Positions 6,916 to 54,683 of a stretch of DNA of 64,000 nucleotides are shown piece after piece. The notes below the pieces were generated by a model. The model searched no databases, was not told where the DNA came from, and saw only the letters and a program-made list of their open reading frames with translations. The translations under genes were made by a program, and so were the position numbers. Numbering within the stretch: position 1 is the stretch's first letter; every line of letters starts with the position of its first letter. Source of the DNA: a virus (lineage: Duplodnaviria > Caudoviricetes); IMG/VR virus record IMGVR_UViG_3300010163_000006, positions 1 to 64,000 of that record. The stretch is one strand, 5' to 3'.

Positions 6916-6934
6916 CAGAAAGGAGAGATAAGAT

Positions 6935-18301: not shown

Positions 18302-20830
18302 TCAACATTTTATGTCGGGTAGTTGTTTTATTTCATCATGTGCACCCGGATAATACGGGATTAACATATGACGTTTTCTACCCCAAGATTCGAACATCCT
18401 TGCTTGTTTAACATGGTCGGTTATATCGAAATACCATGTTTCTTTACCTCTATCACGAAGACGTCCAAATATTTGTTCTCCAATTATAGGAGAAGAATAT
18501 TGATCAAAGTTTATAACGGCTGCAAGATTGGATACATCAACACCAGTACCCATTGACAATGATGTTGAAAGTATAAAGTCACTTTCCATTGCTTGTTTTC
18601 TAACGGGTAATGGCATGGAACCATCTACACCCGCGAATGAGTATTGCCTAAAGAAAGGATCTCGATCCATTAATTCCATCAGTTTCTCTATTATAGAGAT
18701 CAATGGAACTAACAGCAGTATCTTTCCATCGTAAGTAATTGTCTTTCTTGCAACCTTCATCATGTATATAAGATTGTTAAGAAATGGTATACCATCTTTA
18801 TATGCCATCAGCATACGATAATAAGTCGCCTTTATAAGACCCTTACTACCATAACGGAAATGTTCCATACATAATTTTGTTGATGGATAATAGTAGATAT
18901 CTTGGTATAACACATTTACGTATTTGTGTTGATATTCTTCATATTCAGGATTACCAATGAATCGTTGTGCATCTGATAATGCCCGATTCAATATAGTATC
19001 TTCCTGAGCATCAGATCTACCCAGTGTTGCTGAGAGATACCAATTGTGACGAATATTACATATTGCATCAAATTTAAGATTCCCCTTAAGATGAAGATGT
19101 GCTTCATCAACAACCTTGATACCAAAGGCCGATCTACCAACAACATCCATCAGTTTTTCCCAATCTTCTCTCAAAGCATTTTCAATAGAAGATATTGTGA
19201 CAACACATACCTTTTTACTTGGTGCATCAAATATGTTAGTTGCTATATCTGACGTGGAAATGCCCACATTTTCAAATTCTTCACACCATTGTTTCTTCAA
19301 TAGTGTTGTTGGTGCAACAATCAGAGGTTTCAAACATAACTTTGAAATTGCATATGTTGCAATGAAGGTATTGTGGGTAACAATGAAATCTTCTGTAAGA
19401 TACAAATGTTCCGGGTTATCAACCATGATACATCTGCACTTCTCATAGTGTGAAAAACTGATATCCTTTATAAGAAGATCATTATATATGTTTTCTTTAC
19501 ACATAACAGCTGACTCTACAGCCATTGCAAATTTGTGTCCTACTGAGAAGAAGTTCTTCTTATCCTCATTAGGAACCTTGAGTGATAGGTTTCCACAGAA
19601 TCCTTCCACATATTTATCTTCCCTTATATCAGTAACAATCTTACCGGTGCTATATCCGAGGGAATACATTATCCACTTAAACTGTTTGAGCAGTTTTAAT
19701 GAACAAGATGAATATCTCATATTGTAGCGACCGCCGCTATATGATATAGATCCATTGGTATCCATCAGCCCACGTATAAGTGACATTCGGATCTCAGAAT
19801 CATTTACCATGTATATTTCGGGTATTGATTTGTCTCTGGAATAACATCCTACCATCTCAGGAATATCCTTAAAGAAATCTTTTGTCTTTACAGGTTCTCC
19901 AGATTTATGATAGAATCTATAGTCGTAGTTGGATTGTGATTTTTTGAAATCGAAGTTACATATCTCAGCAATTCTTCTTGGAACATCATCAGTTCCTGAG
20001 GAGATTACAAGGGTACTTTCTGTACAGCATCCGTTGCCTATAAAACATCCAAGAACCCATGGATCAATCGGGACATCTTGATGCGGATATTTTACCGGTT
20101 GACACATCGGAATATGATATTTGTAATCATATGGATCATTCCGTCCATTACGAACTTTCCATGGAGATATCCTCTTGAAGTCCTTCATCATATCCTTTGT
20201 CTCAACTGTTTTCCATATTCCATTTTTATGTGATTTAACAGTCCAAAGATGTTCTTCTCCACACATCGCAGTTCGACCATCCTGAAATGTTATCTTGAAA
20301 ACTGGTTTTTCTCCTTGCTCAAATATCTGTAATATCCTTGTCGATCTACCCAATCTATCGAATACATAATCTCCTACCTTGAGATCTCCCATTAAGGTGT
20401 ATCCTTCTGGTGTTGGAGTCGGAATACGTCGTGAGTAGGGTTCCTCTTTGCCTGTGCCGGGTTTGAGTTCAATAGTCAACTTGTAACCTTTTTTGTTTGG
20501 ATCAGTCATCATTTTGATGCAGTCCTCTTGAAGTTTGGATCGAGGTTGACGATTCATCGTAAGAGTCACATTAGTCGGAGTCATTGGTTGGATTACCGAT
20601 GGTCGAGGTAATGATTGGATAACAGGATCATTTATATTTAAAAATCCAGATGATATATAAACGACATCATGTTCTTTACCGAATATAGGTTTCTTAGAAG
20701 TATCATTACCGCTGTAGATGAAGAATTCTCTTACAGGATTTACTAATGAGAAATATCTTAATATTCTCCTTTTGACTTCATCTGTGGGATTATGAATGAT
20801 GACACCTGTTGTGGTTCTTTCAAGTTTCAT
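18302..20830 (-). CDS. Superfamily 2 DExH helicase (UvsW-like), intein-containing; about 483 aa after splicing
   Basis: PGTGK|T Walker A split by the intein, VVDEAH, LSAT, TGVD, QIFGRLR. Confidence 0.88.
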   Translation of the reverse strand: MKLERTTTGVIIHNPTDEVKRRILRYFSLVNPVREFFIYSGNDTSKKPIFGKEHDVVYISSGFLNINDPVIQSLPRPSVIQPMTPTNVTLTMNRQPRSKLQEDCIKMMTDPNKKGYKLTIELKPGTGKEEPYSRRIPTPTPEGYTLMGDLKVGDYVFDRLGRSTRILQIFEQGEKPVFKITFQDGRTAMCGEEHLWTVKSHKNGIWKTVETKDMMKDFKRISPWKVRNGRNDPYDYKYHIPMCQPVKYPHQDVPIDPWVLGCFIGNGCCTESTLVISSGTDDVPRRIAEICNFDFKKSQSNYDYRFYHKSGEPVKTKDFFKDIPEMVGCYSRDKSIPEIYMVNDSEIRMSLIRGLMDTNGSISYSGGRYNMRYSSCSLKLLKQFKWIMYSLGYSTGKIVTDIREDKYVEGFCGNLSLKVPNEDKKNFFSVGHKFAMAVESAVMCKENIYNDLLIKDISFSHYEKCRCIMVDNPEHLYLTEDFIVTHNTFIATYAISKLCLKPLIVAPTTLLKKQWCEEFENVGISTSDIATNIFDAPSKKVCVVTISSIENALREDWEKLMDVVGRSAFGIKVVDEAHLHLKGNLKFDAICNIRHNWYLSATLGRSDAQEDTILNRALSDAQRFIGNPEYEEYQHKYVNVLYQDIYYYPSTKLCMEHFRYGSKGLIKATYYRMLMAYKDGIPFLNNLIYMMKVARKTITYDGKILLLVPLISIIEKLMELMDRDPFFRQYSFAGVDGSMPLPVRKQAMESDFILSTSLSMGTGVDVSNLAAVINFDQYSSPIIGEQIFGRLRDRGKETWYFDITDHVKQARMFESWGRKRHMLIPYYPGAHDEIKQLPDIKC
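19370..20446 (-). mobile_element. Class 3 intein (359 aa) with degenerate LAGLIDADG endonuclease
   Basis: Starts EEPYSRRIPTP..G...MGDLKVGDYVF; block B EHLW; block F CRCIMV; ends IVTHN|T. Confidence 0.88.
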
Positions 20831-29981: not shown

Positions 29982-31070
29982 TTATTTCCATTTGACCTGG
30001 TTTAAGATGGCTTTGTTATCGCCATTATCTGTTGGAACAGAGAACGTGTTTTTCTTCTTCCTCATGAAGTTCGGTCTTGTTGATTTCTTCATGCCGTCTC
30101 CCAAACCGCTTGCCTCTTTGTACTCATTATCGATTTCTTTTATTTGAGGTCTGGGAAGACCTGCAACAATGATTGATGCGACAGACACACCATCATTGTC
30201 ATCGTTAACGATGTTGCGGTATTCATCATACACATTGTCAAGACGGTTGTTAATCTCCTCAAAGACATTTCCGAAATCAGTATTCGCGAACATTGATGTC
30301 AGAGAATAACCGGTAAGAATAGTGCCCTGTTTAGCTTCATCAGGAGTCCATGCAGGCTGGAAACCAGAGAACACTTTTCTTGTTATCTCTTTTCTCAATG
30401 CTGGAATGGAATTTGCTTCAGCAGATACAGCAAGGAATCTACCAGGAGTATTGAGAATAACATCCAAGTCCGACTCATCAATGGAATCGAGATCGGTTTT
30501 ACCATACTTCTTACCAAAGATGATTTCAATGAGGTTAACTACTTCCTGGTTGACAGGGCCATAATCAGCATCACCTCTACGGTTTTCAAACATTGAATAC
30601 GTCTTGATTCCGAGCTCACCAAGTTCCATCAACAGATCATTTGTGTTGAGATGGAATGCCGTAGGGTCATTCTTGTTCGGGCATATAATGATGGGAATAA
30701 CCTGTACTCCTTTATCCAAAAGGGATTTACATACAGGGATTGCAGAACCAGAACCAGTTCCACCTGCAGCTGATGTTATAACAAGAATGGGAGATTTGGA
30801 ATTCACTGCATCAGAATACATTTCTTCAAATGCACCCTGGGACTCATGAAATTCGAACATATCTTTTCCACGTTCTCTGTTACGACCAGAACCAGTCTTT
30901 TCATCGGCAATGATAGGAATTACCTTTATTCTGTCCATTATAGACAGATCGATAGTTGATGTGACACTGTCGATGGCATACATTTTAATCCCATCGAGAA
31001 GTGGTGATTCAGCGGCGGCCTTGATGATGTTTGTACCACACCCACCGAGGCTAATTATGAGATTATTCAT
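29982..31070 (-). CDS. Tubulin/FtsZ-family GTPase (PhuZ/TubZ-like)
   Basis: LGGCGTNI, GSGRNRERG, tubulin signature AAGGTGSG, FEN, T7 loop SIDESD. Confidence 0.9.
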   Translation of the reverse strand: MNNLIISLGGCGTNIIKAAAESPLLDGIKMYAIDSVTSTIDLSIMDRIKVIPIIADEKTGSGRNRERGKDMFEFHESQGAFEEMYSDAVNSKSPILVITSAAGGTGSGSAIPVCKSLLDKGVQVIPIIICPNKNDPTAFHLNTNDLLMELGELGIKTYSMFENRRGDADYGPVNQEVVNLIEIIFGKKYGKTDLDSIDESDLDVILNTPGRFLAVSAEANSIPALRKEITRKVFSGFQPAWTPDEAKQGTILTGYSLTSMFANTDFGNVFEEINNRLDNVYDEYRNIVNDDNDGVSVASIIVAGLPRPQIKEIDNEYKEASGLGDGMKKSTRPNFMRKKKNTFSVPTDNGDNKAILNQVKWK

Positions 31071-31199
31071 TTTTATCGACCTCCATTTTAAATATATCAT
31101 AAAGAGCACCAATGTCATATCGTACAGGCGTACACAGATTTCCGAATCTTTAATTGATTTTTTTGATATAACACTGGTGCATCTTAATGAACTATGTGA

Positions 31200-39999: not shown

Positions 40000-40542
40000 T
40001 TATTCTTCATCTACAGCTGTTTGTGTTTCCAGATAGATTGCTCCAAAAAAATTCCATATAGCCGCAATATGATGAGGTTCATCCGTTTCTCCTGAAATCC
40101 ATTGACATAAGTGTCTCAATCCGGAATCGCGGAAACTCTGTGCGGGAATTCCCTTCTTCCAATTATCGGCACCATATTTATCGGCTCCTTTTTCGTAATG
40201 CACAGCAAGTTCACGAAGCATCTTGGTAAAGCCGATCAAAAAATCGGATTGATGTATGATGATCTCGGTTTTATCCATTATGCTGTCTTTTGTGTATTTC
40301 TCATTAACGATAGATATTATGGATGTAATATAATCTCCTTTGTATGCAGAAGCTAATGCCACACTCTTGTAGTCATTGACATGTAAATCGTTCGTCCATA
40401 CATACTTAAAGATCTCAGCAATAACCTCATATGGTATGAGATCGAAACGACCCTTTCCAGTTTTCGTGTAGCGTATGCCACCACCTTCGAACTGATGGAA
40501 TTCCCCATCCATCTTAATTTCATAATCTTTTGTATCTTCCAT
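40000..40542 (-). CDS. DUF5664 / dATP-dGTP diphosphohydrolase-like domain protein
   Basis: GKGRFDLIP...GADKYGADNWKKGIP...SGLRHL...HIAAIWN. Confidence 0.75.
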   Translation of the reverse strand: MEDTKDYEIKMDGEFHQFEGGGIRYTKTGKGRFDLIPYEVIAEIFKYVWTNDLHVNDYKSVALASAYKGDYITSIISIVNEKYTKDSIMDKTEIIIHQSDFLIGFTKMLRELAVHYEKGADKYGADNWKKGIPAQSFRDSGLRHLCQWISGETDEPHHIAAIWNFFGAIYLETQTAVDEE

Positions 40543-40613
40543 ATTAATTAATCCTTTCAATATAAAAAAAAATAACGGGGATATTATTCATATCCCCGTA
40601 TATGTGTTAATTG

Positions 40614-41630: not shown

Positions 41631-41746
41631 TTAAAGTCCGAAGACTGTAATATTTGAATAAAGATATTTGCTCTCTTTATTCAAATAAATAATATGTATA
41701 CCGATAATAAAAATAATAGGACCGGGATTATCCCGGTCCTTTATAA

Positions 41747-42259
41747 TTATTTATTGTCTGTAGAACCGTCATCAACAACTTCGACTTCTAACTCTTCTGA
41801 AGCTTCGTTGATAGTGTCTTCTGCCTGAGCAGCTTCACAGGTGGATTCGGATAACTCTTCCTCAATAAGCTGTTCATAAAGAGCCCGGGTGTTGATTGTC
41901 GAAATCTCCGTAAACCAGTCAACGATCTGTTTCTTAGTACCAACATCGAATGTCTTGTTATAGACCTCGTTATAGTCTTCATCACGTGCTCCTACGGTAC
42001 AGCGGGCAACCAAATGATCATCCTGTATTGTCTTTACCAGTATAACAACCTTAGTATCGTTGAAGTCGGGCTGAACCGTACAGTCAATTGTGTTGGTTGT
42101 GACACGATAGATCTTTGTTTCCGGATTTACATTCACAGATATGTCCGGACCGAATGTACGGGGAGCAAGAGCCAATACATAGTCTGTCAGAGCATATACG
42201 ATTTTAACACCTTCGATTGATTCCTCCATCAATTTAGCGGTAATTTCATTCATTGTCAT
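41747..42259 (-). CDS. Hypothetical acidic protein
   Basis: Last gene of the kinase operon; terminator hairpin at about 41718-41740. Confidence 0.65.
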   Translation of the reverse strand: MTMNEITAKLMEESIEGVKIVYALTDYVLALAPRTFGPDISVNVNPETKIYRVTTNTIDCTVQPDFNDTKVVILVKTIQDDHLVARCTVGARDEDYNEVYNKTFDVGTKKQIVDWFTEISTINTRALYEQLIEEELSESTCEAAQAEDTINEASEELEVEVVDDGSTDNK

Positions 42260-42929
42260 CTATCTCCTTTTCGACATAATCCTCGGCAGGGATATCTGCA
42301 TCAACATCATTATCGTATTCATCTGCATCATCGTCATCATGACAATATTCCTCATCTTCACGATAATATCTTTCATCGTCACATTCCATTTCCTGGTCAT
42401 CAGCAAGTGATTCATCGTACTCATCCGCGAATTGTTCAATCATTTCGCGATCTTCATCCGACATTGCATTGTCCGCGAGAATGATGAATTTAGAAATAGA
42501 ATATTCATCCATATCTATACAGAATATGAAGAACCAGAACATCGGATTGAGACAATCCGGATAATCATACTCGGTGACCTTGACCGCCATCTCGTATACT
42601 TCTCTGGGAATGTTCCATACAAATGATTTCTGGAGCACTTCTGCCAGAGGTATCTCCTTGAAATACTTGTCTCTGAACTCTAATAACCATGTCAAGACAT
42701 CAGCAATCTCATTATCTTTTAAAGATGTTGCATCATATCCCTGTGGAGGTTCATTATTTTTATTCGAAATGTCATTGATCATTTCCATGATCTTTTTAAC
42801 GTTGTCACTAAGTTCAACGTATTTGTCATCGGTCTTTGTTTCAACCGATTGAATGTTAGGTTCAGGAACTACCACCGGTTGTTGTATAACCGGTGGATCT
42901 GAAACCTTTAACATATCCCAATATTTCAT
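42246..42929 (-). CDS. Hypothetical protein with highly acidic C-terminal tail
   Basis: AAAGGAGG RBS; D/E-rich last ~70 aa. Confidence 0.65.
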   Translation of the reverse strand: MKYWDMLKVSDPPVIQQPVVVPEPNIQSVETKTDDKYVELSDNVKKIMEMINDISNKNNEPPQGYDATSLKDNEIADVLTWLLEFRDKYFKEIPLAEVLQKSFVWNIPREVYEMAVKVTEYDYPDCLNPMFWFFIFCIDMDEYSISKFIILADNAMSDEDREMIEQFADEYDESLADDQEMECDDERYYREDEEYCHDDDDADEYDNDVDADIPAEDYVEKEIDDNE

Positions 42930-42943
42930 TGTCGTATCCTCCT

Positions 42944-43801
42944 TTAATACCAATTCGACGTTTGATAACCTCCTAAATGATCCGATACATTCATTGCCGC
43001 ATCATATAAGTCAGGTGCATCAGGATTGGTATCATACTTAATATACTTGGGATCAACAGGATGTTCTTCGAACTCATCCTTCATGATTATGCCAGTAGCA
43101 TTATTGAATAATCTCATTCTTTCATTGTTAGATATTCTGGCTCTTAATTCTCTATCCTCGTATTCCTTTTTACATTTAGAACACCGATATCTCGAGAAAT
43201 CTCCCCCTACAAACTCCATTGCTTGGTTGCCACATATACATTTGAAGATGTCTATAGACACCGGGAACACATATGCGTAATCAATACATACAGGTCGACC
43301 TCCGGGAGCCAAACCCCAGTTTGCAAAGTTCTTACCAGTAATGCCAACATCTCCCAACAGAAATCTTTTACCCCAATCAGAGAGTATATTACTAATAGCC
43401 GATCTATGATTGTACATCTCTTGGGCGGATGTAAAAGCAGGACAGTAGGAGGCCACCAATAAGTGACCTCCTTTGCTTATTTCATGCGCATATGCAACAT
43501 TCGGCATCAGCGATTCACATACTGCATATTCCTGCATATTATCCGCTATGCCCTCTCGATCTAACGCGATTTTGAGGGCATAGCCGTCGTACTTTACAAT
43601 GAATCGGTTAGTACCTGTACCTATATCAAGCCATTCGATTTTATAATCATCAAGTAATTTGATGACCCTCTCTTTTCGAGAAGTTGCTCTCATGCCTTTC
43701 TGAAGAGGTATCTCTCCAACTTCATCTTTGAAATCCGGGGGGAGACTATTTAAACGAGACCTGAACGTTCGAATGTACTCCGACGTTACTGTTTCCGCCA
43801 T
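42944..43801 (-). CDS. Protein-kinase-like (Ser/Thr kinase fold) enzyme with C-terminal zinc ribbon
   Basis: Gly loop IGTGTNR, ALK lysine, helix-C NMQE, catalytic GDVG...NFANWG, IDYA (DFG equivalent), CICG...CSKC. Confidence 0.75.
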   Translation of the reverse strand: MAETVTSEYIRTFRSRLNSLPPDFKDEVGEIPLQKGMRATSRKERVIKLLDDYKIEWLDIGTGTNRFIVKYDGYALKIALDREGIADNMQEYAVCESLMPNVAYAHEISKGGHLLVASYCPAFTSAQEMYNHRSAISNILSDWGKRFLLGDVGITGKNFANWGLAPGGRPVCIDYAYVFPVSIDIFKCICGNQAMEFVGGDFSRYRCSKCKKEYEDRELRARISNNERMRLFNNATGIIMKDEFEEHPVDPKYIKYDTNPDAPDLYDAAMNVSDHLGGYQTSNWY

Positions 43802-43827
43802 TTAAATTCACACCCTTTACTGTTATA

Positions 43828-44532
43828 TCAGCGCTGATAAGACCAGTTTTCCATTGCCTTGTCCTTCCAGTTCATGGGAGCTGTCGGGAAAGGCTGAATC
43901 TGATACTGATTCATACAGAACTGGTTTGGACCGTAACAGTTCTGCTGCTGTTGCTGCTGTTCTCTCCAGTTGATAGTCGGCATCGGATAAGGTCTGTTCT
44001 GAGTATAGTAGTTGTCCCAGCTGTTACGTTTGTCGAATCCGAATGAATTATTATTGTACAACGCCAGGGTATTTGTATCAGGACCATAATAATAGTTTCC
44101 ATATGGATTCTGATCAAAGTACATCGGCGGCTGCTGAGGAGCAGGTGTTGTGGGATTGAAACCATTCATCGCCGGTGCCTGGGGTTTTGCCCAAGGGTTG
44201 TTCTGATTGGGCATCTGATTCGGAATGTTTCTTCTACTCTCAATTGCCGCATTAAGACCTCCGGGCTGTGCCATCGGTGAAGGCGGATAAGAAGAGAATG
44301 GTTGTACAGCCTGCTCAGGAACGGTAGATTGTGTCTGACCAAACTGAGCGAAGGGATTCGGAGCAGCCGGGTTTACAGGATTCATCATATTTCTTCTGGA
44401 GCCATCATTATAGCATCCTGAAGGATTGCCGGAGAATCCACCCCAGAAATACATGTCATTCCTTGGTGTGTTCTGATAGGTGTGCTGGAGGAAACCAGCA
44501 CCCTGATCTGTTGGGTAATCGGGATTATACAT
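43828..44532 (-). CDS. Prion-like N/Q/P/Y-rich disordered protein with SRRN motifs
   Basis: AAGGAGG RBS; polar low-complexity composition; GSRRNM and ESRRNIPNQ. Confidence 0.7.
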   Translation of the reverse strand: MYNPDYPTDQGAGFLQHTYQNTPRNDMYFWGGFSGNPSGCYNDGSRRNMMNPVNPAAPNPFAQFGQTQSTVPEQAVQPFSSYPPSPMAQPGGLNAAIESRRNIPNQMPNQNNPWAKPQAPAMNGFNPTTPAPQQPPMYFDQNPYGNYYYGPDTNTLALYNNNSFGFDKRNSWDNYYTQNRPYPMPTINWREQQQQQQNCYGPNQFCMNQYQIQPFPTAPMNWKDKAMENWSYQR

Positions 44533-44553
44533 TTTAAATTCCTCCTTAAGATT

Positions 44554-45186
44554 TTAATGATACATCGATGATATCAGCTGTGAAATTACAGTGAGATCCT
44601 CGAATACCGACTCGGGTGTTGTGGACCTGGAAAGATCCCATTTTGTTCTCAGACACATAAAGTCATCATTAATACGCTGAATGTGACCGATGCTACAGAG
44701 AACATTGTTCGTGGGTACGAGATTTGTCATATAACGCGGTGGGATATATAATCCAGCGAAGCATGTTTCAACTTCTGTTACATGACATTTTCCAGAAACG
44801 TTAATGTCGAATATACCGTCCCTAACAATTCCGAAGTACTGCTCCATTGTTGCAAGAACATCGAAGAGGTTGTTAAGAGCGATAGTCACTTGTGACCGAG
44901 GAACGGGGAGAGTTATAACCCAAAAACCATCAGGCTTATCCATCTTTGTCTCTCTGATGAGACAACCCTTTCCTCTGAGAAATCCGAGGTTCGCATCGAT
45001 ATAACGAATACGATCCGAGGGATTTGTGCTGTAAGCCTGTGTGTCTGTACACAATACCTTGAAACCGATAAACGGCTCTTTCTGGATTGCATACGGAACA
45101 TAGGTCTGCATCACAATAGACGAGTAATCGACCGGTTCCTCCGGGCTGAGAACTCTGGATTGATACTGGGAAACCAGCATGTTCAT
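44554..45186 (-). CDS. Hypothetical protein, possibly a degenerate COOH-NH2 (amido)ligase fold
   Basis: First gene after the early promoter at 45246-45260; motif order IGFKV / DGFWVITLP / GIFDINVS / MCLR. Confidence 0.55.
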   Translation of the reverse strand: MNMLVSQYQSRVLSPEEPVDYSSIVMQTYVPYAIQKEPFIGFKVLCTDTQAYSTNPSDRIRYIDANLGFLRGKGCLIRETKMDKPDGFWVITLPVPRSQVTIALNNLFDVLATMEQYFGIVRDGIFDINVSGKCHVTEVETCFAGLYIPPRYMTNLVPTNNVLCSIGHIQRINDDFMCLRTKWDLSRSTTPESVFEDLTVISQLISSMYH

Positions 45187-45291
45187 GTGTAAATCCTCCT
45201 TTATGATAATATGGAGAAGATACTCTGTTGTATCTTCTCCATCGAAATTATATATGTCTTCAAAATAATTTATATTGAAGCCACATGTAGT

Positions 45292-45545
45292 CTATACTGC
45301 GGCAGTATAATTTATTCTCTGCTGTCCAAAGAAGATTGGTATTGATATACTTACATTTTCCATGATGTCGTCCTTCAATGCAAATGACTGTGGTGATAAG
45401 AATGGATGTCTAATAGCTGTTATTGAACTATCTGTGCTTTGATCAAGGTCTCTCTGTTTTGCTGCTTTAATCATTAATGATTTTACTTCACCATTATTCT
45501 CAATATTTATCAAAGCAATAAAATCGGCAACTTCCTGAATTTCCC
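45292..45545 (-). CDS. DnaB-like replicative helicase, exon 2
   Basis: Splicing T|GG gives GSAWEIQEVADFIALI (DnaB motif H4), followed by KQR. Confidence 0.85.
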
Positions 45546-46695
45546 CATTGTCTTCACATGGGTCGTTACTCCATGCAGTTCTCTTATGAACTTCTCTGTC
45601 ATTACAACAGAAGATGAGACTATATCACGATCTCATTATGAGACCCCTTTCATTTCGCTTTAATCGGGAATTACTGGATTATTACTCCACACCCGAACCA
45701 CTTGGCGCTACTCTACTCCTTTCGGACTTATGTCCTTATTCCAATCAATATGATTGAGTTAGTTTCGATAGTCGTTGAACCTTATAATTTTAATCCATGT
45801 TTCTTGAATATCTTATGAGATACTCCTGTTCTGGCATTACCATCTCGAATGTTTCGGATTATATTCTTATCAATAACAATGCCTTCTGATACAAGATCGT
45901 CATATACACCATCTATATCACAATCGTCCAATATGAGATACTCACATATCAAACTTACGTGCTCATCAGAAATTCTATCTATTTCTGATATAGATTCGCG
46001 TGTAAAATATTCGTCAGAAATCCAGCTCCAAATTTTCTTGTATTTTATGTCATGGATCCTACCAATATTTGTTTTAACACCAAATATTGGTATTGTGTGA
46101 AAAGTCTTAATACAATTACCGCAATAATATACTAACAACATGCATATTGTCCTAACACTCTCTTCATCAAGATTTGTATTTCCATTTCTCGATCCTCTCA
46201 TTATGGGTATTAGTCCATTAGCAAAACCGCGTCTAACATTTTCTGTTCTGGTAACCCATTCAAGATTAGATGGTTTGTTATTATTTTTATTCCCATCGAT
46301 GTGATCAACTTCGTTTTTCACATTCGTTCTTCCATTCACAAAATGAACAGCAACGACACGATGAGTTTTGATAGATCGGCTTTTGCCGTCCGAACATCTA
46401 AAGAGAGTCATGAGATAACCTTTCTCCGAAGGACATTGGGTCATAATATGACCTGTCAATTTATTTCGGATTCTCCCCATGTTAGACACTTGATACATGT
46501 CGGGTTTTATATTACGATATTCGACATCTTTCCATATTTCCTCCATAATAATCACCACCTTTGTGTTTATTATATCGGATTAAAATTATCTTGGCTGCTG
46601 ATCTCCTGCTACGTCATCCCGACGTTACTTTACGGAGTCCCAGACAATTAAAAAGGTTTGCTTAGTAACTCACGCTACTAAGGCGCCGGTAATTA
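45546..46695 (-). mobile_element. Group I intron (1150 nt) in the DnaB-like helicase, with HNH ORF
   Basis: Exon ends in U, intron ends in G; P1 GCGU/GCGC; P TTGTCTGGGA, Q ATCAGCAGCCAAG, R GTTCAACGACTA, S GATATAGTCT. Confidence 0.9.
45782..46546 (-). CDS. Intron-encoded NUMOD4-HNH homing endonuclease
   Basis: EIWKDV, YQVSNMGRI, THRVVA, VDHIDGNKNNNKPSNLEWVT; lies between the Q and R elements. Confidence 0.9.
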   Translation of the reverse strand: MEEIWKDVEYRNIKPDMYQVSNMGRIRNKLTGHIMTQCPSEKGYLMTLFRCSDGKSRSIKTHRVVAVHFVNGRTNVKNEVDHIDGNKNNNKPSNLEWVTRTENVRRGFANGLIPIMRGSRNGNTNLDEESVRTICMLLVYYCGNCIKTFHTIPIFGVKTNIGRIHDIKYKKIWSWISDEYFTRESISEIDRISDEHVSLICEYLILDDCDIDGVYDDLVSEGIVIDKNIIRNIRDGNARTGVSHKIFKKHGLKL

Positions 46696-47938
46696 ACGCA
46701 CTACCAATTTGGCCCCGAGACAATGCTTGATCGGTTTTGTTAAACCCACCATTTTTGACGATATCATCTACCTGTTTTGCAGCTTCTCTATTGAGCTGAT
46801 GACCTGTTATGATCGGAATATTAAACTCTGCCGCAACATTCTTCAATTCATTCATGATTGCATGAAGCTCTGTTTTCTCAGACGCGGTTGCAGCAGCATC
46901 TGTACGACCTGGTCTGATACGTTTAATATAGTCCAAGAACACCGCAACGACTTGATTCTCATCATTATTATATGATCGGATTATCGCTTCAAGATCCTTT
47001 GTGGACTTTTCACGATATCCGTAATAAAGAATAACAGAACGCATTCCTTTGGAGGCAAGTTCATTATTCATCATCTCACAGATTTCATCAACAGAAAACA
47101 TTGACATATCTGCAGTGGGGAATAGTATACTCCATAGACGACGTATTGTTTGAACCATTGTATTCTCCATTGAGATATACATGGAAATCGGCGTCTTTCC
47201 ATTTGTGGTATTTTTAATGTGTTCATTATATTTAAGGGTGTCAACATGTCCCTTGAGTAAGATACCAGATTTATAGTTACCCGGAAGACCTGCATAGACA
47301 TATAAACATCCAGACAGATATCCGGGAGAAAGAAGGTTGTTAAGTGCTCGGATTCCTGTTATAATACATTTATCAGGAGCTCGAGCATCTTTTGCATCAG
47401 CCACGACAATTTTCATTCCTTCTGGGTCAGAAGAATCGAACGAATGGGATACTGTAGTTATATTGGCTGACTCATATGCTTTTACTATTTCTTTAGAAAC
47501 AGTATATATCCGTTCAAGATGATCATGAAGATCCTCGGGTTCATCATCTGAATTGATGATGTCTATTGTCTTTATGAATCCATCAGTAGCTTTTAGCACA
47601 CCTGCAAACTTTACATAGTCTGACAATACTTGACAGAGCTTTGTACACTCTGATTGAGTTGTTATTGTTGGATTATGCATCAAGAACGTAATATTCTCAA
47701 TGATTTCTTGTTCTTCTCCTTCATCACGCATAACTTCCAATATGAGATTGATATTGTTAATATTCTTCTCAATAAAACTTATGACCCTATGTGCAACGAG
47801 ACAATATACTGATTTAGATGGATATACTGACAGTACCCGTGAAAATAGTACAATCATTTGAGACGTTCTTAAATTGTTTTTTGGGTTACAAAGAATGGAA
47901 GCAATATCTTTATAAATTGCATTTCGCAAAGTCTTCAT
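46696..47938 (-). CDS. DnaB-like replicative helicase, exon 1 (spliced product about 498 aa)
   Basis: Walker A variant AGLPGNYKS, YISMEN, VFLDYI, ITGHQLNR. Confidence 0.88.
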
Positions 47939-48038
47939 GAAACCGTCGTCCTTTCAATGATTTCTAAGTAGTATTATGCTGTTGTCGGACGATTTTGATT
48001 TAAAGCCGGGGATTATCCCCGGCTTAATTATCAATATA

Positions 48039-49796
48039 TTATTGCCTCGTATAATGACCTTCATCATTTACAGCAGGAAGGATGTGTGCATCGAATACGA
48101 GAGCACGGCTCGTGAGAAGGTATTTAACAATTGACAACGATGCCGCAACTACCTCGAGATCATATTGTGCCGATGTAGGTAACTTCTGGCCAGGAAGGGA
48201 TGCATTACAAATGATATCGAATGACGTAAATTTACCATTTGAATAGTGGTCAGATCTTTGTTTGTCACGCGAATAGTTGCATTTATCACCGTATTTGGAT
48301 TGCCAAATATCATCGAACAATCCTTCGATTGAAAGTTCGATTGCGTTGATAACTGCATCAAGATCACCATGTGTCTCGTTGGCAAATGATCGCATCTGTC
48401 TCATTCTCGTATATGCATATTTGAGGAGATTCGGAACGATACCACTGGTAATCGCAGAATTAACGATTGAAATACAGTCATCGATCTTGTCAGTGATGAG
48501 CTTTGCCTCAAGTGTTGATCCACACTTAACTGTCAACATAGTGTCCTTTGTTTCCATCTTAAGTGCTTTTATTCTGTCATTGTATTCTTTTTCCTTAAGA
48601 TACGAATGTGTTGTATCTGCATCGAGTTCCGCTTTAAGGGTATTGATATATTGATCAACATATTCATCTCCTACCTCATAAAATGCAAGACAGTTTCCTT
48701 TGAACACGCTGACAATAACCATCGGAAGTTCAGCATGGTCAACAACCCCAGCATGGATATCAAATGCCTTGGTGCCGAGAAGATGTGCAAGGTCCTGGAT
48801 TTCGTGCTGAACATATGTTCCTTGCACTTCTGCAAGATAGATGTTGTTGACGCCATCACTCTTACCACACTTCTTTGCCATCTGGAGTTGTTTCAGATGA
48901 AGCACCCATTCGTTGGATAAAAAGCCTCGAGTAAATGTCCTTGCAAGGATGATCGTAGGATAACCGTCATAATCCTGGGTGAAGTTTATCCAGTCAGTAC
49001 TTCCGAATGCATGGTCATATATAGCACAACGTATCTGTGCCGGATTAGCGAGTTTGTTTGCTTCTTCAACACCGATGTTGACTCTCACGCGGTAATCCCC
49101 AGGCATGTACTCGAATGAATATGTTGCATTTGAATCTGCATCAAGAGATACATCCTCATTAGTAATTACATTACGAACACTGAGAACTTCTCCTGTATTG
49201 GGATCTACCTCCGGTTGAAGTGCTTCAACGATAACCGATGTGAGTTCATAATCGTAATTCGATGAGAGTGAGATGATTTGCTGCAGAGCGTATCTCGTAA
49301 GCGGTTCGATGTCTTTCAGCTCTCTACCTTTAGCAAGGAGATCTTTGTCCTGCAGCTTCTTCTCGATAAACAAGAGAATGTCAAGGATGTTTCTCTTATC
49401 GTCAGGAGTCTTGATAATATCGTTGAGATTGTTGAAGATCTTGTCTGCCAACAGAATACATGATGTTGTACCATCACCGACATTACGATTTACTCTATCG
49501 ATGATCTTCTGGATTGCCAGATAAACCATCCGCTTATAAGCATGATTGAATCCCATAGATTGGAATACGTTATAACCATCCTTAGTCGTCGTTGTCTCAG
49601 ACTGTTCAGATATGATAACTGACGAACCATACGGACCGTATGTCGAACGTAACACATCCGAGATCGTTTTGAACGTGTCACTGACAAGCCGTTTAAACGC
49701 CTCTTCAGGAATTACGTTAATATTGTTTTCATGGGAGTATTGAGTGTAATCGAAGACTCTCGAATACCCAGCAAGCTCCATTTCTTCATTAGTCAT
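48039..49796 (-). CDS. Phage GroEL-like chaperonin
   Basis: TYGPYG, TTKDG, VGDGTTS, KIDD motifs. Confidence 0.9.
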   Translation of the reverse strand: MTNEEMELAGYSRVFDYTQYSHENNINVIPEEAFKRLVSDTFKTISDVLRSTYGPYGSSVIISEQSETTTTKDGYNVFQSMGFNHAYKRMVYLAIQKIIDRVNRNVGDGTTSCILLADKIFNNLNDIIKTPDDKRNILDILLFIEKKLQDKDLLAKGRELKDIEPLTRYALQQIISLSSNYDYELTSVIVEALQPEVDPNTGEVLSVRNVITNEDVSLDADSNATYSFEYMPGDYRVRVNIGVEEANKLANPAQIRCAIYDHAFGSTDWINFTQDYDGYPTIILARTFTRGFLSNEWVLHLKQLQMAKKCGKSDGVNNIYLAEVQGTYVQHEIQDLAHLLGTKAFDIHAGVVDHAELPMVIVSVFKGNCLAFYEVGDEYVDQYINTLKAELDADTTHSYLKEKEYNDRIKALKMETKDTMLTVKCGSTLEAKLITDKIDDCISIVNSAITSGIVPNLLKYAYTRMRQMRSFANETHGDLDAVINAIELSIEGLFDDIWQSKYGDKCNYSRDKQRSDHYSNGKFTSFDIICNASLPGQKLPTSAQYDLEVVAASLSIVKYLLTSRALVFDAHILPAVNDEGHYTRQ

Positions 49797-50440
49797 TTTT
49801 TCAATTTCTCCTTTTCCGCTAATATATTAAAGCCCTCTGTTTGTAATTTGTATCTGATAACCATATCTGTTGGGGAATTGGGTACTTTGATATGTCCTTT
49901 GTAATCGGCATATATATCGACACCCATCGTTACTCTAACCACATCATATGCAATTGTAGATTGAAGGTTATACAATGCCGTCAGAGCTTCGTTGAGTTGA
50001 TACATGATAAATTCTTCAACAATTTCATGTGTCTTATTATATATTTCTTCCGATGACATTTCCGACAATTCTTCATGAGAAAATCTTTCAAACAATTTTG
50101 CTTTTGCCGCAGAAACATACATTTCTTCAAGTTGGTTCTGATTGCGCATCGCATCATGAAAGTGAAAGATTTTCTTTGAAAGAGTATCGAGGGCTTGTGC
50201 AACTGTGGTTATATTTGAAGGCATCGAGTATTTGTTATTTGTATAAATATCAAATAGAGAACGCAGTCTTTTAATTATTGATTTTGCATCAATAAAATCT
50301 TTATCAGACATCTCAGTCCCTGAAGTCAACAGTTGACCGAGATTATCACAATTCCTATCGATTTCATTAACCACGTTCTCGAATATTGATATGTCCTGTA
50401 ATTCCTTCTTTTTTACTAATCTGAGTCTATAACCGAACAT
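49793..50440 (-). CDS. Hypothetical helical protein
   Basis: Overlaps both neighbours (translational coupling). Confidence 0.65.
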   Translation of the reverse strand: MFGYRLRLVKKKELQDISIFENVVNEIDRNCDNLGQLLTSGTEMSDKDFIDAKSIIKRLRSLFDIYTNNKYSMPSNITTVAQALDTLSKKIFHFHDAMRNQNQLEEMYVSAAKAKLFERFSHEELSEMSSEEIYNKTHEIVEEFIMYQLNEALTALYNLQSTIAYDVVRVTMGVDIYADYKGHIKVPNSPTDMVIRYKLQTEGFNILAEKEKLKK

Positions 50441-51543
50441 AATGATGGTCCCTTTATATTATTAACAAGCGTGATGTTGTTAGAATTTTTGATAATGGAG
50501 TACTTATCTCCTGCAGTAAGTGGTTTATCCAATATCAGGATGAGTTTGTTGAACCGATGATATTTTACTGAATAAGGTGTTATTATATTAGCAGGTTCAA
50601 CGCGTATAGTACCTCGTTTTGTTAACGAATATGGTATGTCATTATCATATTCAACATCGACCCCGCAAACTGTCTTAGAATTATATATCCTAAGTTGCAT
50701 CAGTGGATTAGATGATGGATTAGTTATAACAAGAAGTGAACGGCTTGTAAGGGCATGCCTTCTGTCATCATTAATTGCTCCAACAGAAACCATTCCTTCA
50801 GCAATAGAACCAGGACTGATCAAAACCTTCTGATTTTTCCGGAAAGGTGCATCCTTCTGCTTTTTAATGACATCCTCGTACAAGACCCAATCATTAGTAA
50901 CATACTGGTTGTCATCGATTTTACCAACAGATCTTCGGTTTATCTTACTTATTTCGGTAATCGTTCCACGAACCTTACGATCTACTGCTCTTGATTGGAA
51001 CCCATATACAGATCGAGCTAATGCAATCATCGGTGAAACTTTCTCAAGATGATCAACCAACACCGGCATATCTACGAATGATGACAGATATGCTCTTTCC
51101 AGTGGATCTACCACATGTATGATTTTTCCACTGAATTGGTGAGATAAGTGCTCATTAAAACCTGAAGGTATGAGATGTGAATTGAAAATCACAATCACAT
51201 CATACTGAGCAAGTAGTTTTGTATTTACCCTGTACATACTTTCAGGTTCAGGATTACAAATTCGCGGGCTCCATGGATCAATCGGTTTAAACCCGTCAAC
51301 AATCTCTTCTATCATTATATCGGCATAAAACAGAACATTGTTAAGAGGTTCTTTCATCAATCCGATATAATCCTGACAACCATTGAGAACCAGTATCTTG
51401 GAGAATGGAGTTGTTTTAATAGCGGAATCGAGGGTATACTTTTCGATTTGTGTACCTGCTATACCACCAACAATTGTTTCGTGACTGCTACTATCAAAGA
51501 ACTGATCCAGATAGTCAATCATTTCATTTATTTCGTATATCAT
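50416..51543 (-). CDS. Degenerate (probably inactive) Dda/RecD-like SF1 helicase
   Basis: Motif order kept but catalytic residues lost: GGIAGTQIE, VIVIFNSHLI, IIHVVDPLE, ANIITPYSVKYHRF. Confidence 0.55.
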   Translation of the reverse strand: MIYEINEMIDYLDQFFDSSSHETIVGGIAGTQIEKYTLDSAIKTTPFSKILVLNGCQDYIGLMKEPLNNVLFYADIMIEEIVDGFKPIDPWSPRICNPEPESMYRVNTKLLAQYDVIVIFNSHLIPSGFNEHLSHQFSGKIIHVVDPLERAYLSSFVDMPVLVDHLEKVSPMIALARSVYGFQSRAVDRKVRGTITEISKINRRSVGKIDDNQYVTNDWVLYEDVIKKQKDAPFRKNQKVLISPGSIAEGMVSVGAINDDRRHALTSRSLLVITNPSSNPLMQLRIYNSKTVCGVDVEYDNDIPYSLTKRGTIRVEPANIITPYSVKYHRFNKLILILDKPLTAGDKYSIIKNSNNITLVNNIKGPSLCSVIDSD

Positions 51544-51609
51544 AAAATCCTCCATAAGATATAATACATGAGGGGAACGAATCCCCCTCATGTACCATTA
51601 TTAGATTGA

Positions 51610-52254
51610 TCAGCTGTTGAATACAGCATTCAATGAAATACCCGAAGAACCTGATACAGCATGTCTTTTGCTCGTTACAACGACTTCCCATCTGATTGTA
51701 TCAGAGGTTGTGCCGTAAACAGCAACGACTGCCATCTCGCCGTCAACCTTGTTTGATGAAGGATCTGCGAGCATGTCTTTGATGATCATCTCAGGTCTGA
51801 GATATACACCGTAGAGATTGGCAGCCGGACAGTACTTGAGATCCTGATTCATGATAATATCATTGAGACGCTCTCCATACAGGCCGAGCTGATAAAGTCT
51901 CTCAAGAGATTCTGTATTACTGAGGACATCCTTGGTTGACTCGGGATACATAAAGGGCTTCAATACATCCATAACATCGCCATTGAATTCGATGTCTGCC
52001 GCATTGGCCTCGAGTACGCGATCGAAGTAACCCTTAGGTCCACTCTTAACAACAATGTCCTCAGGATAGATTGCTGCTCTCATACGAACGTAGCAGATCT
52101 CCGGAAAAGGACCTGTCCAACGTGTGAAGTCATATGCAGCCAGGTCAAAGCCGAGCTGATCACGAAGATATCTGACAATGTCTGAACCAGAGATGACGAA
52201 TCTCTCAACAGGTACCTGCTTGATACCCGCCTTGTTTGAAACTGAATTTGCCAT
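51610..52254 (-). CDS. Hypothetical protein
   Basis: AGGAGG RBS; 214 aa. Confidence 0.7.
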   Translation of the reverse strand: MANSVSNKAGIKQVPVERFVISGSDIVRYLRDQLGFDLAAYDFTRWTGPFPEICYVRMRAAIYPEDIVVKSGPKGYFDRVLEANAADIEFNGDVMDVLKPFMYPESTKDVLSNTESLERLYQLGLYGERLNDIIMNQDLKYCPAANLYGVYLRPEMIIKDMLADPSSNKVDGEMAVVAVYGTTSDTIRWEVVVTSKRHAVSGSSGISLNAVFNS

Positions 52255-52272
52255 TGAAAATTCCTCCTATAA

Positions 52273-52620
52273 TTAATTTTGTATACAAATGTAAGCCGAC
52301 AGTACTTTTATTATTGACTGCTGACTTGCGTCCAATCTGTTTGGATATTCTGAGAAAATACCCATCGACAATTCGTAGATAATTCCATCAGGAATTTCTC
52401 CATCAACGAGATTGTTTTTCAGGATATCTTCATAATCCTCTTCTTCAAATGTCATTTCAACGAATGGCACATTGATAGAGTCGAATATCTTTCTCTTTGG
52501 TTTCATGATTTGAATCATTGCGTCAGTTGACTGCTTGTATCTGTCAGGGACCTCACTGAGTGCAACAGATTCAAATCCAACGTCTGTTGTCTTACTCTTA
52601 CAGAATTCGAGGAAGTTCAT
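52273..52620 (-). CDS. Hypothetical protein
   Basis: Starts immediately after the upstream stop (TAAATG). Confidence 0.65.
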   Translation of the reverse strand: MNFLEFCKSKTTDVGFESVALSEVPDRYKQSTDAMIQIMKPKRKIFDSINVPFVEMTFEEEDYEDILKNNLVDGEIPDGIIYELSMGIFSEYPNRLDASQQSIIKVLSAYICIQN

Positions 52621-53028
52621 TTATCCCCACGCTCCTCCTTGCGGTCTATTTGGCATTGAGGGCATTACACCCATGCCAGTCGCGGTACCATAACCAGGGT
52701 TGGTGAATCCTTCATAACCACCATAGTTGTTCATTCTGTTGTTCATGAAGAAACCGGATCCGTGACTGTTATAACCACCATACGTCGAATACGGATTCTG
52801 TGTTTGATATGGTCCAGAGTCTCCGTAACCGTAACCGTATGTCACCGGTTGTGCATAACCGCCACCCATCTGGGGTTGGTTGGGAACATTCCTTCTCGAA
52901 TCTCCCATGAACTGTCTTACATCGTTGATACCGGCTGTCACCGCACCAATGGTATTCTGGGCTGCATTAAGAGCAGCGTTCGCACCACTGAACAGCATGT
53001 CCATATCAAGTTTCTGATTGTCTGCCAT
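52621..53028 (-). CDS. G/Y/N/P-rich prion-like protein with N-terminal amphipathic helix and SRRN motif
   Basis: AAAGGAGG RBS; DSRRNVPNQ followed by GY-rich low complexity. Confidence 0.7.
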   Translation of the reverse strand: MADNQKLDMDMLFSGANAALNAAQNTIGAVTAGINDVRQFMGDSRRNVPNQPQMGGGYAQPVTYGYGYGDSGPYQTQNPYSTYGGYNSHGSGFFMNNRMNNYGGYEGFTNPGYGTATGMGVMPSMPNRPQGGAWG

Positions 53029-53145
53029 TTTAATTCCTCCTTTATCGTTTCCATGAAATGTATCGAACAATGATTCCTTATCTAAGGATCGCTCGATATA
53101 TTTCTACAATATGAGTACATATCGGTTCCCTCCTATCTATTTTTA

Positions 53146-53973
53146 TTACGTCGACACTGCCGTCGGTAATGGGCCGAATAACGGTCTTCCATCATTTGTA
53201 TAAAACATCGCAACAACACCATTATTGTCAGATTGTTGCTGTGGTGTTTGTCTAAGAATGGGATTATTCCAATTGAACATTGGAGTCCACTTCCTCGGCG
53301 GCGGTGGATATTGTTGTCTAACATTTTTCACACCACTCGCCATTTCTCCAAGCGTCCTATCAGCCCATTGTAACTCCTTTCCTGGATATGAATTTGGTCT
53401 GATGGGATTTGAATACATTTGTTGCTGTCGAACATTATTAATTGATGAATTTGTGTAATATGATCTCCAATAAGATCCATTACTATTATTCATGTTAGGA
53501 ACATTCATAATCGGTGCCATTGTGGGTATCATCGATGGATACTGCTGAACAGGAATATTGTTCAATGGAACCTGATACTGAATCTGGGGTATCGTCATGA
53601 ATCTTCTGGATGTGTTCTGTTCATATGCATTCATATTCGGTACCGGTGTGTCATAACCCATGTTCATTGTAGGGTATGCAAAATTAGGTGTCCAGAATCT
53701 TCTGCTCTCAGGAACAATGTGCTGCTGCACTGGGGGCATAGGTGCTACTGGATACTGGGGTGTCTGTGGTTGTACCGGAACATATACCGGTGTATTGTTA
53801 CAGTTGTTATTCACTGGCTGATTGTAATAAGGAAGGTTATTGTTGGCATTCGCAAATATCGGGTTGATCAGACCTGATTGATTTGCTTCTTTAGCTTTCA
53901 AAACCGCACTTATAACTTTGATTGCCGATAAACCAACAACAGTAGCAATTCTAATAACGCCAAAAACGTTCAT
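53146..53973 (-). CDS. N/Q/P-rich prion-like protein with hydrophobic N-terminus and SRRF motifs
   Basis: AAGGAGG RBS; MNVFGVIRIATVVGLSAIKVISAV; ESRRFW and TSRRFM. Confidence 0.7.
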   Translation of the reverse strand: MNVFGVIRIATVVGLSAIKVISAVLKAKEANQSGLINPIFANANNNLPYYNQPVNNNCNNTPVYVPVQPQTPQYPVAPMPPVQQHIVPESRRFWTPNFAYPTMNMGYDTPVPNMNAYEQNTSRRFMTIPQIQYQVPLNNIPVQQYPSMIPTMAPIMNVPNMNNSNGSYWRSYYTNSSINNVRQQQMYSNPIRPNSYPGKELQWADRTLGEMASGVKNVRQQYPPPPRKWTPMFNWNNPILRQTPQQQSDNNGVVAMFYTNDGRPLFGPLPTAVST

Positions 53974-54143: not shown

Positions 54144-54581
54144 TTACTCTTCGTCTGGTGGTAATTCATCAACGAACAGACGCGTTATTGTTGTTTCCGG
54201 ATTGGGTGTTTCTGTTAACTCCAACAAAGAATTCCCATGTTTGTCAATGGTGAGTGTGACATTTATATTTTCTCCTGATTCAAGAATGAAATCTATCAAT
54301 TCATCCGTACTTTTGTTGAAATGTATATCACACATTTTATCGAAGAACGTTGGTTCATCATAGATAAACGATTGGGCAATGTCCTCGGCTGCTTCATATG
54401 ACAATGCAAAGATATATGCGTTGTCCAAAGAAACATTCTTATTGGTTATCATCAACGCATCATCATCTTTGGGTATGGGTTCCTGGAGAAGTGACATCGC
54501 TGTTAGATATTCTTCGGAAAATAGCTCCACTTCTCTCAGAGCTGAACATCCTTTGGTTGCAACATATAATTTGTATTCCAT
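54144..54581 (-). CDS. Hypothetical acidic protein
   Basis: AAGGAGG RBS. Confidence 0.6.
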   Translation of the reverse strand: MEYKLYVATKGCSALREVELFSEEYLTAMSLLQEPIPKDDDALMITNKNVSLDNAYIFALSYEAAEDIAQSFIYDEPTFFDKMCDIHFNKSTDELIDFILESGENINVTLTIDKHGNSLLELTETPNPETTITRLFVDELPPDEE

Positions 54582-54683
54582 TAACATTCCTCCTTAATTT
54601 TAGGCATTGATATGCCCATCTTTCACTGTAAAAATATATTCATATAAAATAAAAAATATTGGAGGGCCACATGGCCCTCCCGT

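Follow-up and report, generated by a model that had tools for sequence, protein, structure and literature searches.

The first 64 kb of the 155,671-bp virus record IMGVR_UViG_3300010163_000006 in IMG/VR (the window; the whole record is termed G000) carry on the minus strand three genes whose products, here called A, B and C, consist almost entirely of low-complexity sequence and share a short motif with two consecutive arginines. Sequence comparison identifies A, B and C as a closed trio specific to one clade of uncultivated, tubulin-encoding jumbo phages. Judged from the same comparisons, the selected core of the motif is Arg-Arg and not the serine that precedes it, and the motif has changed in step among the proteins of the trio on two separate occasions. 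The explanation that we favour, tentatively, is that the three proteins would be multivalent, partly membrane-anchored disordered adaptors, whose Arg-Arg module would bind a common partner and so enrich it at the membrane.

Three conserved genes encode low-complexity proteins with a shared motif

A first-pass annotation of the window had pointed out the three open reading frames (ORFs), rich in Asn, Gln, Pro, Tyr and Gly, together with five Ser-Arg-Arg (SRR) sites that they share. Both observations hold. The gene coordinates given here are from the ORF listing and the hydrophobic segment of C was located by Kyte-Doolittle hydropathy.

43828-44532, minus strand: protein A, 234 amino acids (aa), soluble, low-complexity
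52621-53028, minus strand: protein B, 135 aa
53146-53973, minus strand: protein C, 275 aa
44392-44400, minus strand: SRR motif 1 of A, NDGSRRNMM
44230-44238, minus strand: SRR motif 2 of A, GLNAAIESRRNIPN, the module common to B
52891-52899, minus strand: SRR motif of B, GDSRRNVPN
53698-53706, minus strand: SRR motif 1 of C, PESRRFW
53602-53610, minus strand: SRR motif 2 of C, NTSRRFM
53899-53967, minus strand: hydrophobic N-terminal segment of C (VFGVIRIATVVGLSAIKVISAVL)

The ATG codon of each gene is preceded by AAGGAGG at normal spacing and the homologues start at the same place, for which reason the ATG starts that had been chosen for B and C are to be preferred over longer TTG/ATG alternatives. 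Asn, Gln, Pro, Tyr and Gly together account for a fraction of 0.53 of A, 0.51 of B and 0.45 of C, with charged residues at about 10%, and by this measure the three proteins occupy ranks 1 to 3 among the 148 called proteins of the 155.7-kb record. Asn and Gln make up 18-25% of the proteins overall, with maxima in 60-aa windows of 0.37 (A), 0.22 (B) and 0.32 (C). Five of the 14 SRR tripeptides of the proteome lie in the trio, which represents 666 of 48,120 aa, compared to about 0.13 predicted from the SRR frequency in the remaining proteins (Poisson P ~2e-7).

Conserved short motifs are spread along A: NPDYP..GFLQHTYQ, DSRRN..NPVNPF.QFGQ, VQPFSSYPP, GLN...ESRRN, NPWA, FDK.N.W.N.YTQ.R and NW..IA..NW. 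B begins with an Ala/Gly/Asn-rich helix-like segment, amphipathic as judged from its sequence, followed by a GINxxxxM[GD]DSRRNVPN module, YGYGYG, a Gly/Tyr/Asn-rich tail and a GGAWG end. In C, an N-terminal membrane-helix-like anchor is followed by an N/P/Q/Y-rich region with two SRRF motifs and by a conserved C-terminal VVAMFYTxDGxPLFGP. The mean Kyte-Doolittle hydropathy of this anchor is 1.2-2.7 over 19 aa in 22/22 C homologues. Lys and Arg are found mostly C-terminal to the hydrophobic segment, which suggests, by the positive-inside rule, that the low-complexity tail of C is cytoplasmic. The earlier proposal of hydrophobic or amphipathic N-termini and a membrane tether can thus be narrowed: C has a conserved single membrane-helix-like segment that would leave its tail on the cytoplasmic side, and the N-terminus of B is amphipathic. 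Pfam and PHROGs gave no matches for A, B, C and most of their neighbours, an ESM Atlas feature search with A returned no usable match, and a dedicated search for longer fused forms of A found none.

The trio and its motif are conserved in a clade of related phages

Related loci (numbered with L) were recovered by alignment-based searches, single-protein pattern scans of IMG/VR for A and for the neighbouring kinase-like protein having returned none. About 24 such loci belong to the clade; they come from metagenomic jumbo phages, on contigs of up to 295 kb, and encode a chaperonin 37-63% identical to that of the window. A, B and C are in conserved order across these loci, A alone being assignable in L020. 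The C homologues vary from 176 to 572 aa and, where a locus extends far enough upstream, almost always occupy this position. At L009:4979-6697, a 572-aa C homologue contains at least three near-identical repeats of about SPYGYGYGYADNANYQNSY, which suggests a recent internal expansion of the YGYGY module.

Lack of SRR conservation in homologues was the first result that, according to the first-pass annotation, would speak against its proposal; the motif is conserved. The A family numbers 88 in a collection of 5.8 billion proteins; every member is encoded on a phage-like contig, and none is named or assigned to Pfam. In 76/88 SRR occurs exactly twice, at two constant places and with the consensus [DE]-S-R-R-N. 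An alignment of 69 sequences of A, whose columns average 28% identity, shows no exception to R46 and R47 and at least 90% conservation of S45, S99, R100 and R101. B homologues have one copy of the motif, whose RR pair provides the sole arginines of the protein in several of them. Profile-profile comparison of A and B detects similarity solely in a 16-column module, G[LI]N..[ED]SRRN.P, and the two families are therefore linked by a shared module and not by overall descent. B and many C proteins also share YGYGY[AGS][DE], a second motif that some of them repeat. In G000 as well as in a complete 294.5-kb relative (G004), the trio ranks first to third for low complexity, and no other protein carries the motif of the respective genome.

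Concerted changes of the motif and its Arg-Arg core

In one group of loci (L016, L017 and L023) the motif differs from that of the window. The two sites of A have the form D[AV]RR[AP]D, B carries [EQ]PRR[AQ]D, and C has [AV]PRRPD in L017 and L023, which gives [A/P]RR[A/P]D as the general form of this subclade. The motif Ser is lost from all three proteins here, with Ala, Pro or Val at its place, and the residues after RR are altered alike. In L018 (IMGVR_UViG_3300031867_000001; loci 14077-14751, 6588-7061 and 5324-6448), A and B are without the RR motif, and PT[LP]E[EM]FNxMSxG is common to A, B and C. The chaperonin tree resolves two separate motif-change events, with the change of L016, L017 and L023 placed on the stem of this group and SRR retained in L014, the well-supported sister of L018. 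When the block neighbours were compared, none of these proteins was found to diverge unusually in the swapped-motif genomes. A complete relative of 250.5 kb, G005, also has the swapped motif.

The copies of the motif within a genome use differing Ser codons (TCC, AGT, TCG, AGC) and differing Arg codons, which rules out recent gene conversion as the cause of motif sharing and argues that the motif is kept by selection on the peptide. Signal peptides of the twin-arginine translocation (Tat) pathway have an N-terminal S/T-R-R-x-F-L-K followed by a hydrophobic region. The motifs of the trio are internal (residues 44-130) and are followed by polar low-complexity sequence with no hydrophobic region, and a Tat signal peptide was consequently rejected. 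Prohead-protease sites were likewise ruled out, the residues before SRR (IE, VE, DG, PE, NT, AD) fitting no single cleavage consensus.

The neighbouring kinase-like gene belongs to a wider family

The gene directly downstream of A encodes a protein with a kinase-like domain.

42944-43801, minus strand: protein-kinase-like domain with a C-terminal CxC...CxxC zinc ribbon

This gene matched no Pfam family at E up to 0.01, its match to phrog_4301, a family of unknown function, was weak, and a sequence-profile search against PDB gave no match beyond the zinc ribbon. Modelling with AlphaFold2 (AF2) reached a predicted local distance difference test (pLDDT) of 87.4 with a 53-sequence alignment, compared to 49.5 with 5 sequences, which was unusable. 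The top PDB matches of the model in Foldseek are all protein kinases (E ~1e-4, probability 1.0). VIA-align of residues 14-215 gave Z scores of 9.3-7.9 to CDKL1, DAPK1, PRPK/Bud32 and Rio2, with a root-mean-square deviation of 2.8 Å over 125 residues for CDKL1 (Z 9.3) and 3.5 Å over 153 residues for PRPK (Z 9.0). In BFVD, uncharacterised gut Myoviridae proteins of this same kinase-like family come nearest, ahead of viral protein kinases. G61/G63, K77, D151, N158/N161 and D174 do not vary among 53 diverse homologues, and E91 is conserved to at least 90%; their kinase roles were assigned from motif order and the fold match. The four cysteines of the zinc ribbon vary little or not at all. The catalytic residues are unchanged across the 23 clade loci, except for N158T in L013. 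The gene thus resembles Rio2, Bud32/PRPK and viral kinases in fold and in its equivalents of the beta3 Lys, the alphaC Glu, the catalytic Asp/Asn and the metal-binding Asp, and differs from them by a lengthened catalytic loop, the C-terminal zinc ribbon and the lack of a Pfam kinase match. The kinase fold named in the first-pass annotation is therefore supported by AF2, Foldseek and VIA with its catalytic residues intact, and the protein is a genuine kinase-fold enzyme that is probably active.

An exhaustive profile search collected 1,145 clusters of this family, and comparison of the sequences indicates that it is much older and wider than the trio. In many members, encoded on other jumbo-phage contigs, the domain forms the N-terminal part of a protein of 500-1,200 aa whose long tail is acidic and disordered. 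One such fused kinase-plus-zinc-ribbon gene (L025:4532-7513) lies about 4 kb upstream of a Peptidase_S80/S77 (phiKZ-type) prohead protease gene. The separate acidic proteins that follow the kinase of the window may be a split equivalent of these fused tails, between which phmmer found no similarity; phmmer of the neighbouring proteins of the window against the distant kinase loci in general gave no matches. No match was obtained by tblastn of the kinase or of a fused 993-aa homologue against cultured phages, nothing was found in phiKZ with the kinase profile, and hhalign of the 53-sequence profile detected no relation to T7 gp0.7 at profile level (probability 0.5%).

The kinase-like gene is directly downstream of A in 23/23 clade loci (15/15 among IMG/VR loci). 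The whole block is syntenic inside the clade, so this adjacency adds little, and the tie between kinase and trio that it provides is weak. At distant kinase loci (28-39% identity), a low-complexity ORF was found within 6 kb in 0/41 cases; kinase and trio are therefore not co-distributed outside the clade, and the co-conservation of the kinase with SRR low-complexity ORFs that the first-pass annotation had proposed to look for is not borne out there. Its proposal that SRR is the site of the kinase fares no better, since the kinase is intact both in the subclade without the motif Ser and in L018, whose A and B lack the motif. As judged from these sequences, SRR is unlikely to be an obligatory phospho-site, and a phospho-acceptor elsewhere in A, B or C is possible. 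A complex prediction combining the kinase, the 210-aa protein encoded upstream of A and A itself scored 0.01, which counts neither way as the fold of the partner is itself uncertain.

A tubulin-encoding clade with no detectable chimallin

Two further genes of the window help to characterise the phage.

29982-31118: PhuZ-like tubulin (Pfam Tubulin / Tubulin_2 and phrog_4733 PhuZ matches)
13201-15450: split RNA polymerase beta piece (Rpb2_6 match)

The window combines a PhuZ-type tubulin with a split multisubunit RNA polymerase, as in Chimalliviridae. The GroEL-like chaperonin and the tubulin that had been named in the first pass are both present, with Cpn60-like and Tubulin/Tubulin_2 matches respectively. 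No chimallin had been seen in the window, and a profile built from five phages detected none in G000 or in five relatives of 96-100% completeness (250-295 kb), in a sequence-level search that a very divergent shell protein could escape. The positive controls phiKZ and RAY, both of them rows of the profile, were found with E values of 1e-277 and 1e-261. At sequence level, the jumbo phages of this clade thus encode a tubulin and no detectable chimallin.

G000 is classed as having direct terminal repeats and is 58% complete by CheckV estimate; at 155.7 kb, compared to 250-295 kb in these relatives, it may represent a fragment or else a genome reduced in size. A 574-aa protein encoded next to the block containing the trio, on the other strand, matches phrog_20401 (virion structural protein) and, by tblastn, phiKZ-like phages of Erwinia, Ralstonia and Vibrio as well as Fusobacterium phages. 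Metagenomic homologues of the Cpn60-like gene number over 300, with identities of 47-62% and contigs of up to 285 kb. The region found no counterpart among GenBank phages by megablast. The members of the clade are uncultivated giant phages of gut and rumen. Two related contigs have been binned in assembled genomes, one in a Clostridia bin and one in a Bacteroidales bin, which is ambiguous for the host; the strong Shine-Dalgarno sites would fit a host of Firmicutes type.

The trio as candidate membrane-anchored adaptors

The shared module is exclusive to A, B and C and changes together in them, from which we infer one common partner, or a mutual reading among the three proteins. In the genome of the window the docking module would be G[LI]N-x3-5-[DE]-S-R-R-N-x-P or SRR[FYW], in one or two copies per protein. 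The N-terminal helix of C would hold the set on the cytoplasmic side of the membrane, soluble A and B would add further valences, and the trio would bring the partner together there in an assembly of higher order, liquid-like or not. Condensate formation by these proteins is a plausible prediction. A larger version of this idea, which we consider unlikely, makes the trio the scaffold of a chimallin-independent, membrane-anchored replication or assembly compartment, which C would nucleate at the inner face of the membrane and to which A and B would supply multivalent Arg-Arg and aromatic stickers, and the module would select clients.

Several points weigh against the adaptor explanation. The common partner and the scaffold role are both predictions from the genes. 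Independent concerted changes of the motif number only two, and there are exceptions to its regularity: B of L008 reads SRG, and A of L022 has one SRR and one ARR while B of the same locus has SRR. An S/T-RR site is present in about 11/19 C homologues only, which makes C a looser member of the shared-motif set than A and B. The orientation of C is a prediction by the positive-inside rule, and the host may have either type of envelope. Finally, the low-confidence ESM Atlas model of A (pLDDT 0.43, predicted template modelling score 0.12) is consistent with disorder, but a shallow alignment can also lead to so low a pLDDT.

The adaptor explanation has to be weighed against others, the most serious of which, although unlikely in our judgment, looks for the partner in the host. 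The RR module would imitate a host short linear motif and sequester or redirect a host protein (a chaperone, a protease adaptor or a component of division or secretion). Were this so, motif swaps between subclades would be expected to track host switches. The abrupt change of the motif between subclades with conserved flanking phage proteins, the absence of any unusually divergent phage neighbour in the swapped-motif genomes and the restriction of the motif to the trio all agree with such mimicry, but the Clostridia and Bacteroidales bins of the relatives are ambiguous as to the host, and the module was matched to no known host motif and fails the Tat consensus. The phospho-regulated condensate or viral factory proposed in the first pass, in which the kinase encoded next to A would switch assembly through SRR, either by phosphorylating its Ser or by using it as a docking site, now appears improbable. 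It draws on the invariable position of the kinase-like gene after A, on a confident kinase-like fold with an invariant K/E/D/N/D set, on the FUS-like, Tyr/Gly/Asn/Gln-rich composition with YGYGYG, and on SPO1 Gp27 as a precedent for phase separation by a phage protein (PMC13401047). Against these stand three loci in which the Ser has given way to Ala, Pro or Val (L016, L017 and L023) and the motif-less A and B of L018, all with unchanged kinase catalytic positions, as well as the far wider distribution of the kinase family with no low-complexity ORF near its distant members; adjacency within a fully syntenic clade is not independent evidence.

It is also rather doubtful that the trio are structural or envelope proteins, that is, virion-internal, ejected or envelope-spanning proteins with a role in entry, lysis or superinfection exclusion whose low-complexity parts serve as flexible spacers. 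A gene for a virion structural protein (phrog_20401) does adjoin the block, if on the other strand, a fused form of the kinase family is encoded near a prohead protease gene in another jumbo phage, and C combines a membrane anchor with a highly variable length. The block is however co-oriented with chaperonin, helicase, kinase and nucleotide-metabolism genes and not with morphogenesis genes, the distribution of Lys and Arg puts the tail of C in the cytoplasm, A and B are without a signal peptide when their sequences are read directly, and the surroundings of SRR fit a prohead-protease consensus inconsistently. As to the possibility that A, B and C are non-functional chance ORFs or decaying low-complexity sequence, with SRR as an artefact of composition, we give it practically no credence. 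Low-complexity ORFs are often spurious and the families of the trio evolve fast, but the genes keep the same positions in some 24 loci with strong ribosome-binding sites, RR is invariant in an alignment of 28% mean column identity and SRR is enriched far beyond expectation; conservation already contradicts this explanation.

Organisation of the block and its other genes

A, B and C had been assigned to two early operons. A consensus scan does not support this division: the sole minus-strand terminator-like hairpins bracket one 13-kb block that holds all three genes. Early expression of these genes is a conjecture.

54661-54680, minus strand: terminator-like hairpin upstream of the block (consensus scan)
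52273-52620, minus strand: conserved 115-aa protein (ORF listing, conservation)
48039-52254, minus strand: conserved run between B and the DnaB-like gene (214-aa, 391-aa and 215-aa proteins, Cpn60-like chaperonin)
45292-47938, minus strand: divergent DnaB-like ATPase interrupted by an HNH/NUMOD4-bearing insert
44554-45186, minus strand: highly conserved 210-aa protein, directly upstream of A
41747-42953, minus strand: two strongly acidic proteins closing the block (235 aa, net charge -47; 170 aa, net charge -21)
41718-41740, minus strand: terminator-like hairpin ending the block (consensus scan)

On the contigs of the chaperonin homologues synteny within the clade is strict, in the order C-like, B-like, ~115 aa, ~214 aa, ~360 aa, ~220 aa, Cpn60, divergent DnaB, ~210 aa, A-like, kinase-like and acidic proteins. 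The two acidic proteins that were reported after the kinase are confirmed by their net charges. At the head of the block, a 147-aa acidic protein (54144-54587, net charge -22) has no detectable homologue in 20 related loci.

The stop codon TAA of B directly abuts the ATG of the 115-aa gene (52618-52650), which makes translational coupling of the two genes likely. The Shine-Dalgarno sequence of the 115-aa gene (AAGGAGGAG) sits within the codons of the conserved C-terminal QGGAWG of B; the conservation of this end of B may therefore partly reflect a constraint at the nucleotide level.

The 391-aa gene (50416-51591) had been described as a dead helicase. Its product has an invariant GG..G loop without Lys (a degenerate P-loop), and the description is weakly supported. 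The ten nearest ESM Atlas structures are all superfamily 1 (SF1) helicases, with template modelling scores of 0.39-0.42 to a model whose pLDDT is only 0.41, and a degenerate SF1 helicase is a lead suggested by this model. No Pfam, PHROG or PDB sequence match and no usable ESM Atlas feature match was found for the 391-aa protein, and PDB sequence profiles of the 210-aa, 391-aa and 214-aa proteins yielded nothing meaningful.

Inactivation of the DnaB-like gene is not what the comparison indicates. The gene is split by an insert with an HNH_3/NUMOD4 gene (45782-46558), beyond which a 73-aa ORF is found (45292-45513). An uninterrupted 498-aa form without the HNH gene is present in L004 and L005 and the insert is present in others (L002, L006). 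This pattern suggests a mobile intron or homing element, present in some members of the clade and absent from others.

Just downstream of the block, a conserved protein (40000-40560) carries a dATP/dGTP diphosphohydrolase N-terminal domain; its relatives are 156-376 aa long and vary in fusion state, and by analogy with AR9/PBS1-like phages it may be linked to modified-nucleotide metabolism. Elsewhere in the window, an 842-aa ResIII/Helicase_C protein (18302-20830) has a weak LAGLIDADG_3 match at residues 348-396, which may correspond to an intein or an inserted homing endonuclease domain.

Relation to known systems and significance

The composition of the trio is reminiscent of FUS/Sup35-type domains, with its bias to Asn, Gln, Gly, Tyr and Pro, few charges, spacing of the [G/S]Y[G/S] type and low predicted order. 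It differs from them in that proline is abundant, that the proteins are almost wholly low-complexity and not a tail on a folded protein, and that they carry a conserved Arg-Arg module. Classical yeast prion domains have a higher content of Asn and Gln than the 18-25% of the trio (at most 37% in 60 aa). The architecture of C also recalls that of bitopic proteins of the ZipA/FtsN type, in which an N-terminal membrane anchor is followed by a P/Q-rich linker and a short C-terminal binding element; C has an N-terminal helix, a variable P/Q/N-rich spacer and a short conserved C-terminal piece. This likeness is a lead from architecture alone, and C differs from these proteins in carrying internal RR motifs shared with two soluble proteins.

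Among phages, prion-like domains have been catalogued computationally (Tetz and Tetz 2017, PMC5694896), and precedents for phase separation exist in Gp27 of SPO1 (PMC13401047) and in the chimallivirus RNA-binding protein ChmC (PMC11077065). These are phage proteins proposed or shown to build higher-order assemblies in infection, as is proposed here for the trio. Unlike the trio, to which they have no sequence relation, they have defined domains acting on transcription or RNA. The trio for its part comprises three predicted-disordered proteins, one of them membrane-anchored, in a clade with no detected chimallin, and is known from its genes. Our literature search found no description of a conserved, near-wholly disordered trio with a shared co-varying module and a membrane anchor in a jumbo-phage clade in which chimallin goes undetected.

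Short linear motifs in disordered proteins are a main means by which eukaryotic viruses rewire cells and, to our knowledge, are hardly documented in phages. A module that is shared by three proteins and has changed in step at least twice offers a concrete handle on an interaction hub. The present analysis also defines a large, so far unannotated family of kinase-plus-zinc-ribbon proteins in jumbo phages. For phages that encode a tubulin and in which no chimallin is detected, a membrane-tethered multivalent scaffold is a candidate answer to how infection is organised. If a chimallin-independent compartment of this kind proved true, giant phages would have evolved the compartmentalisation of infection twice, independently and by different means.

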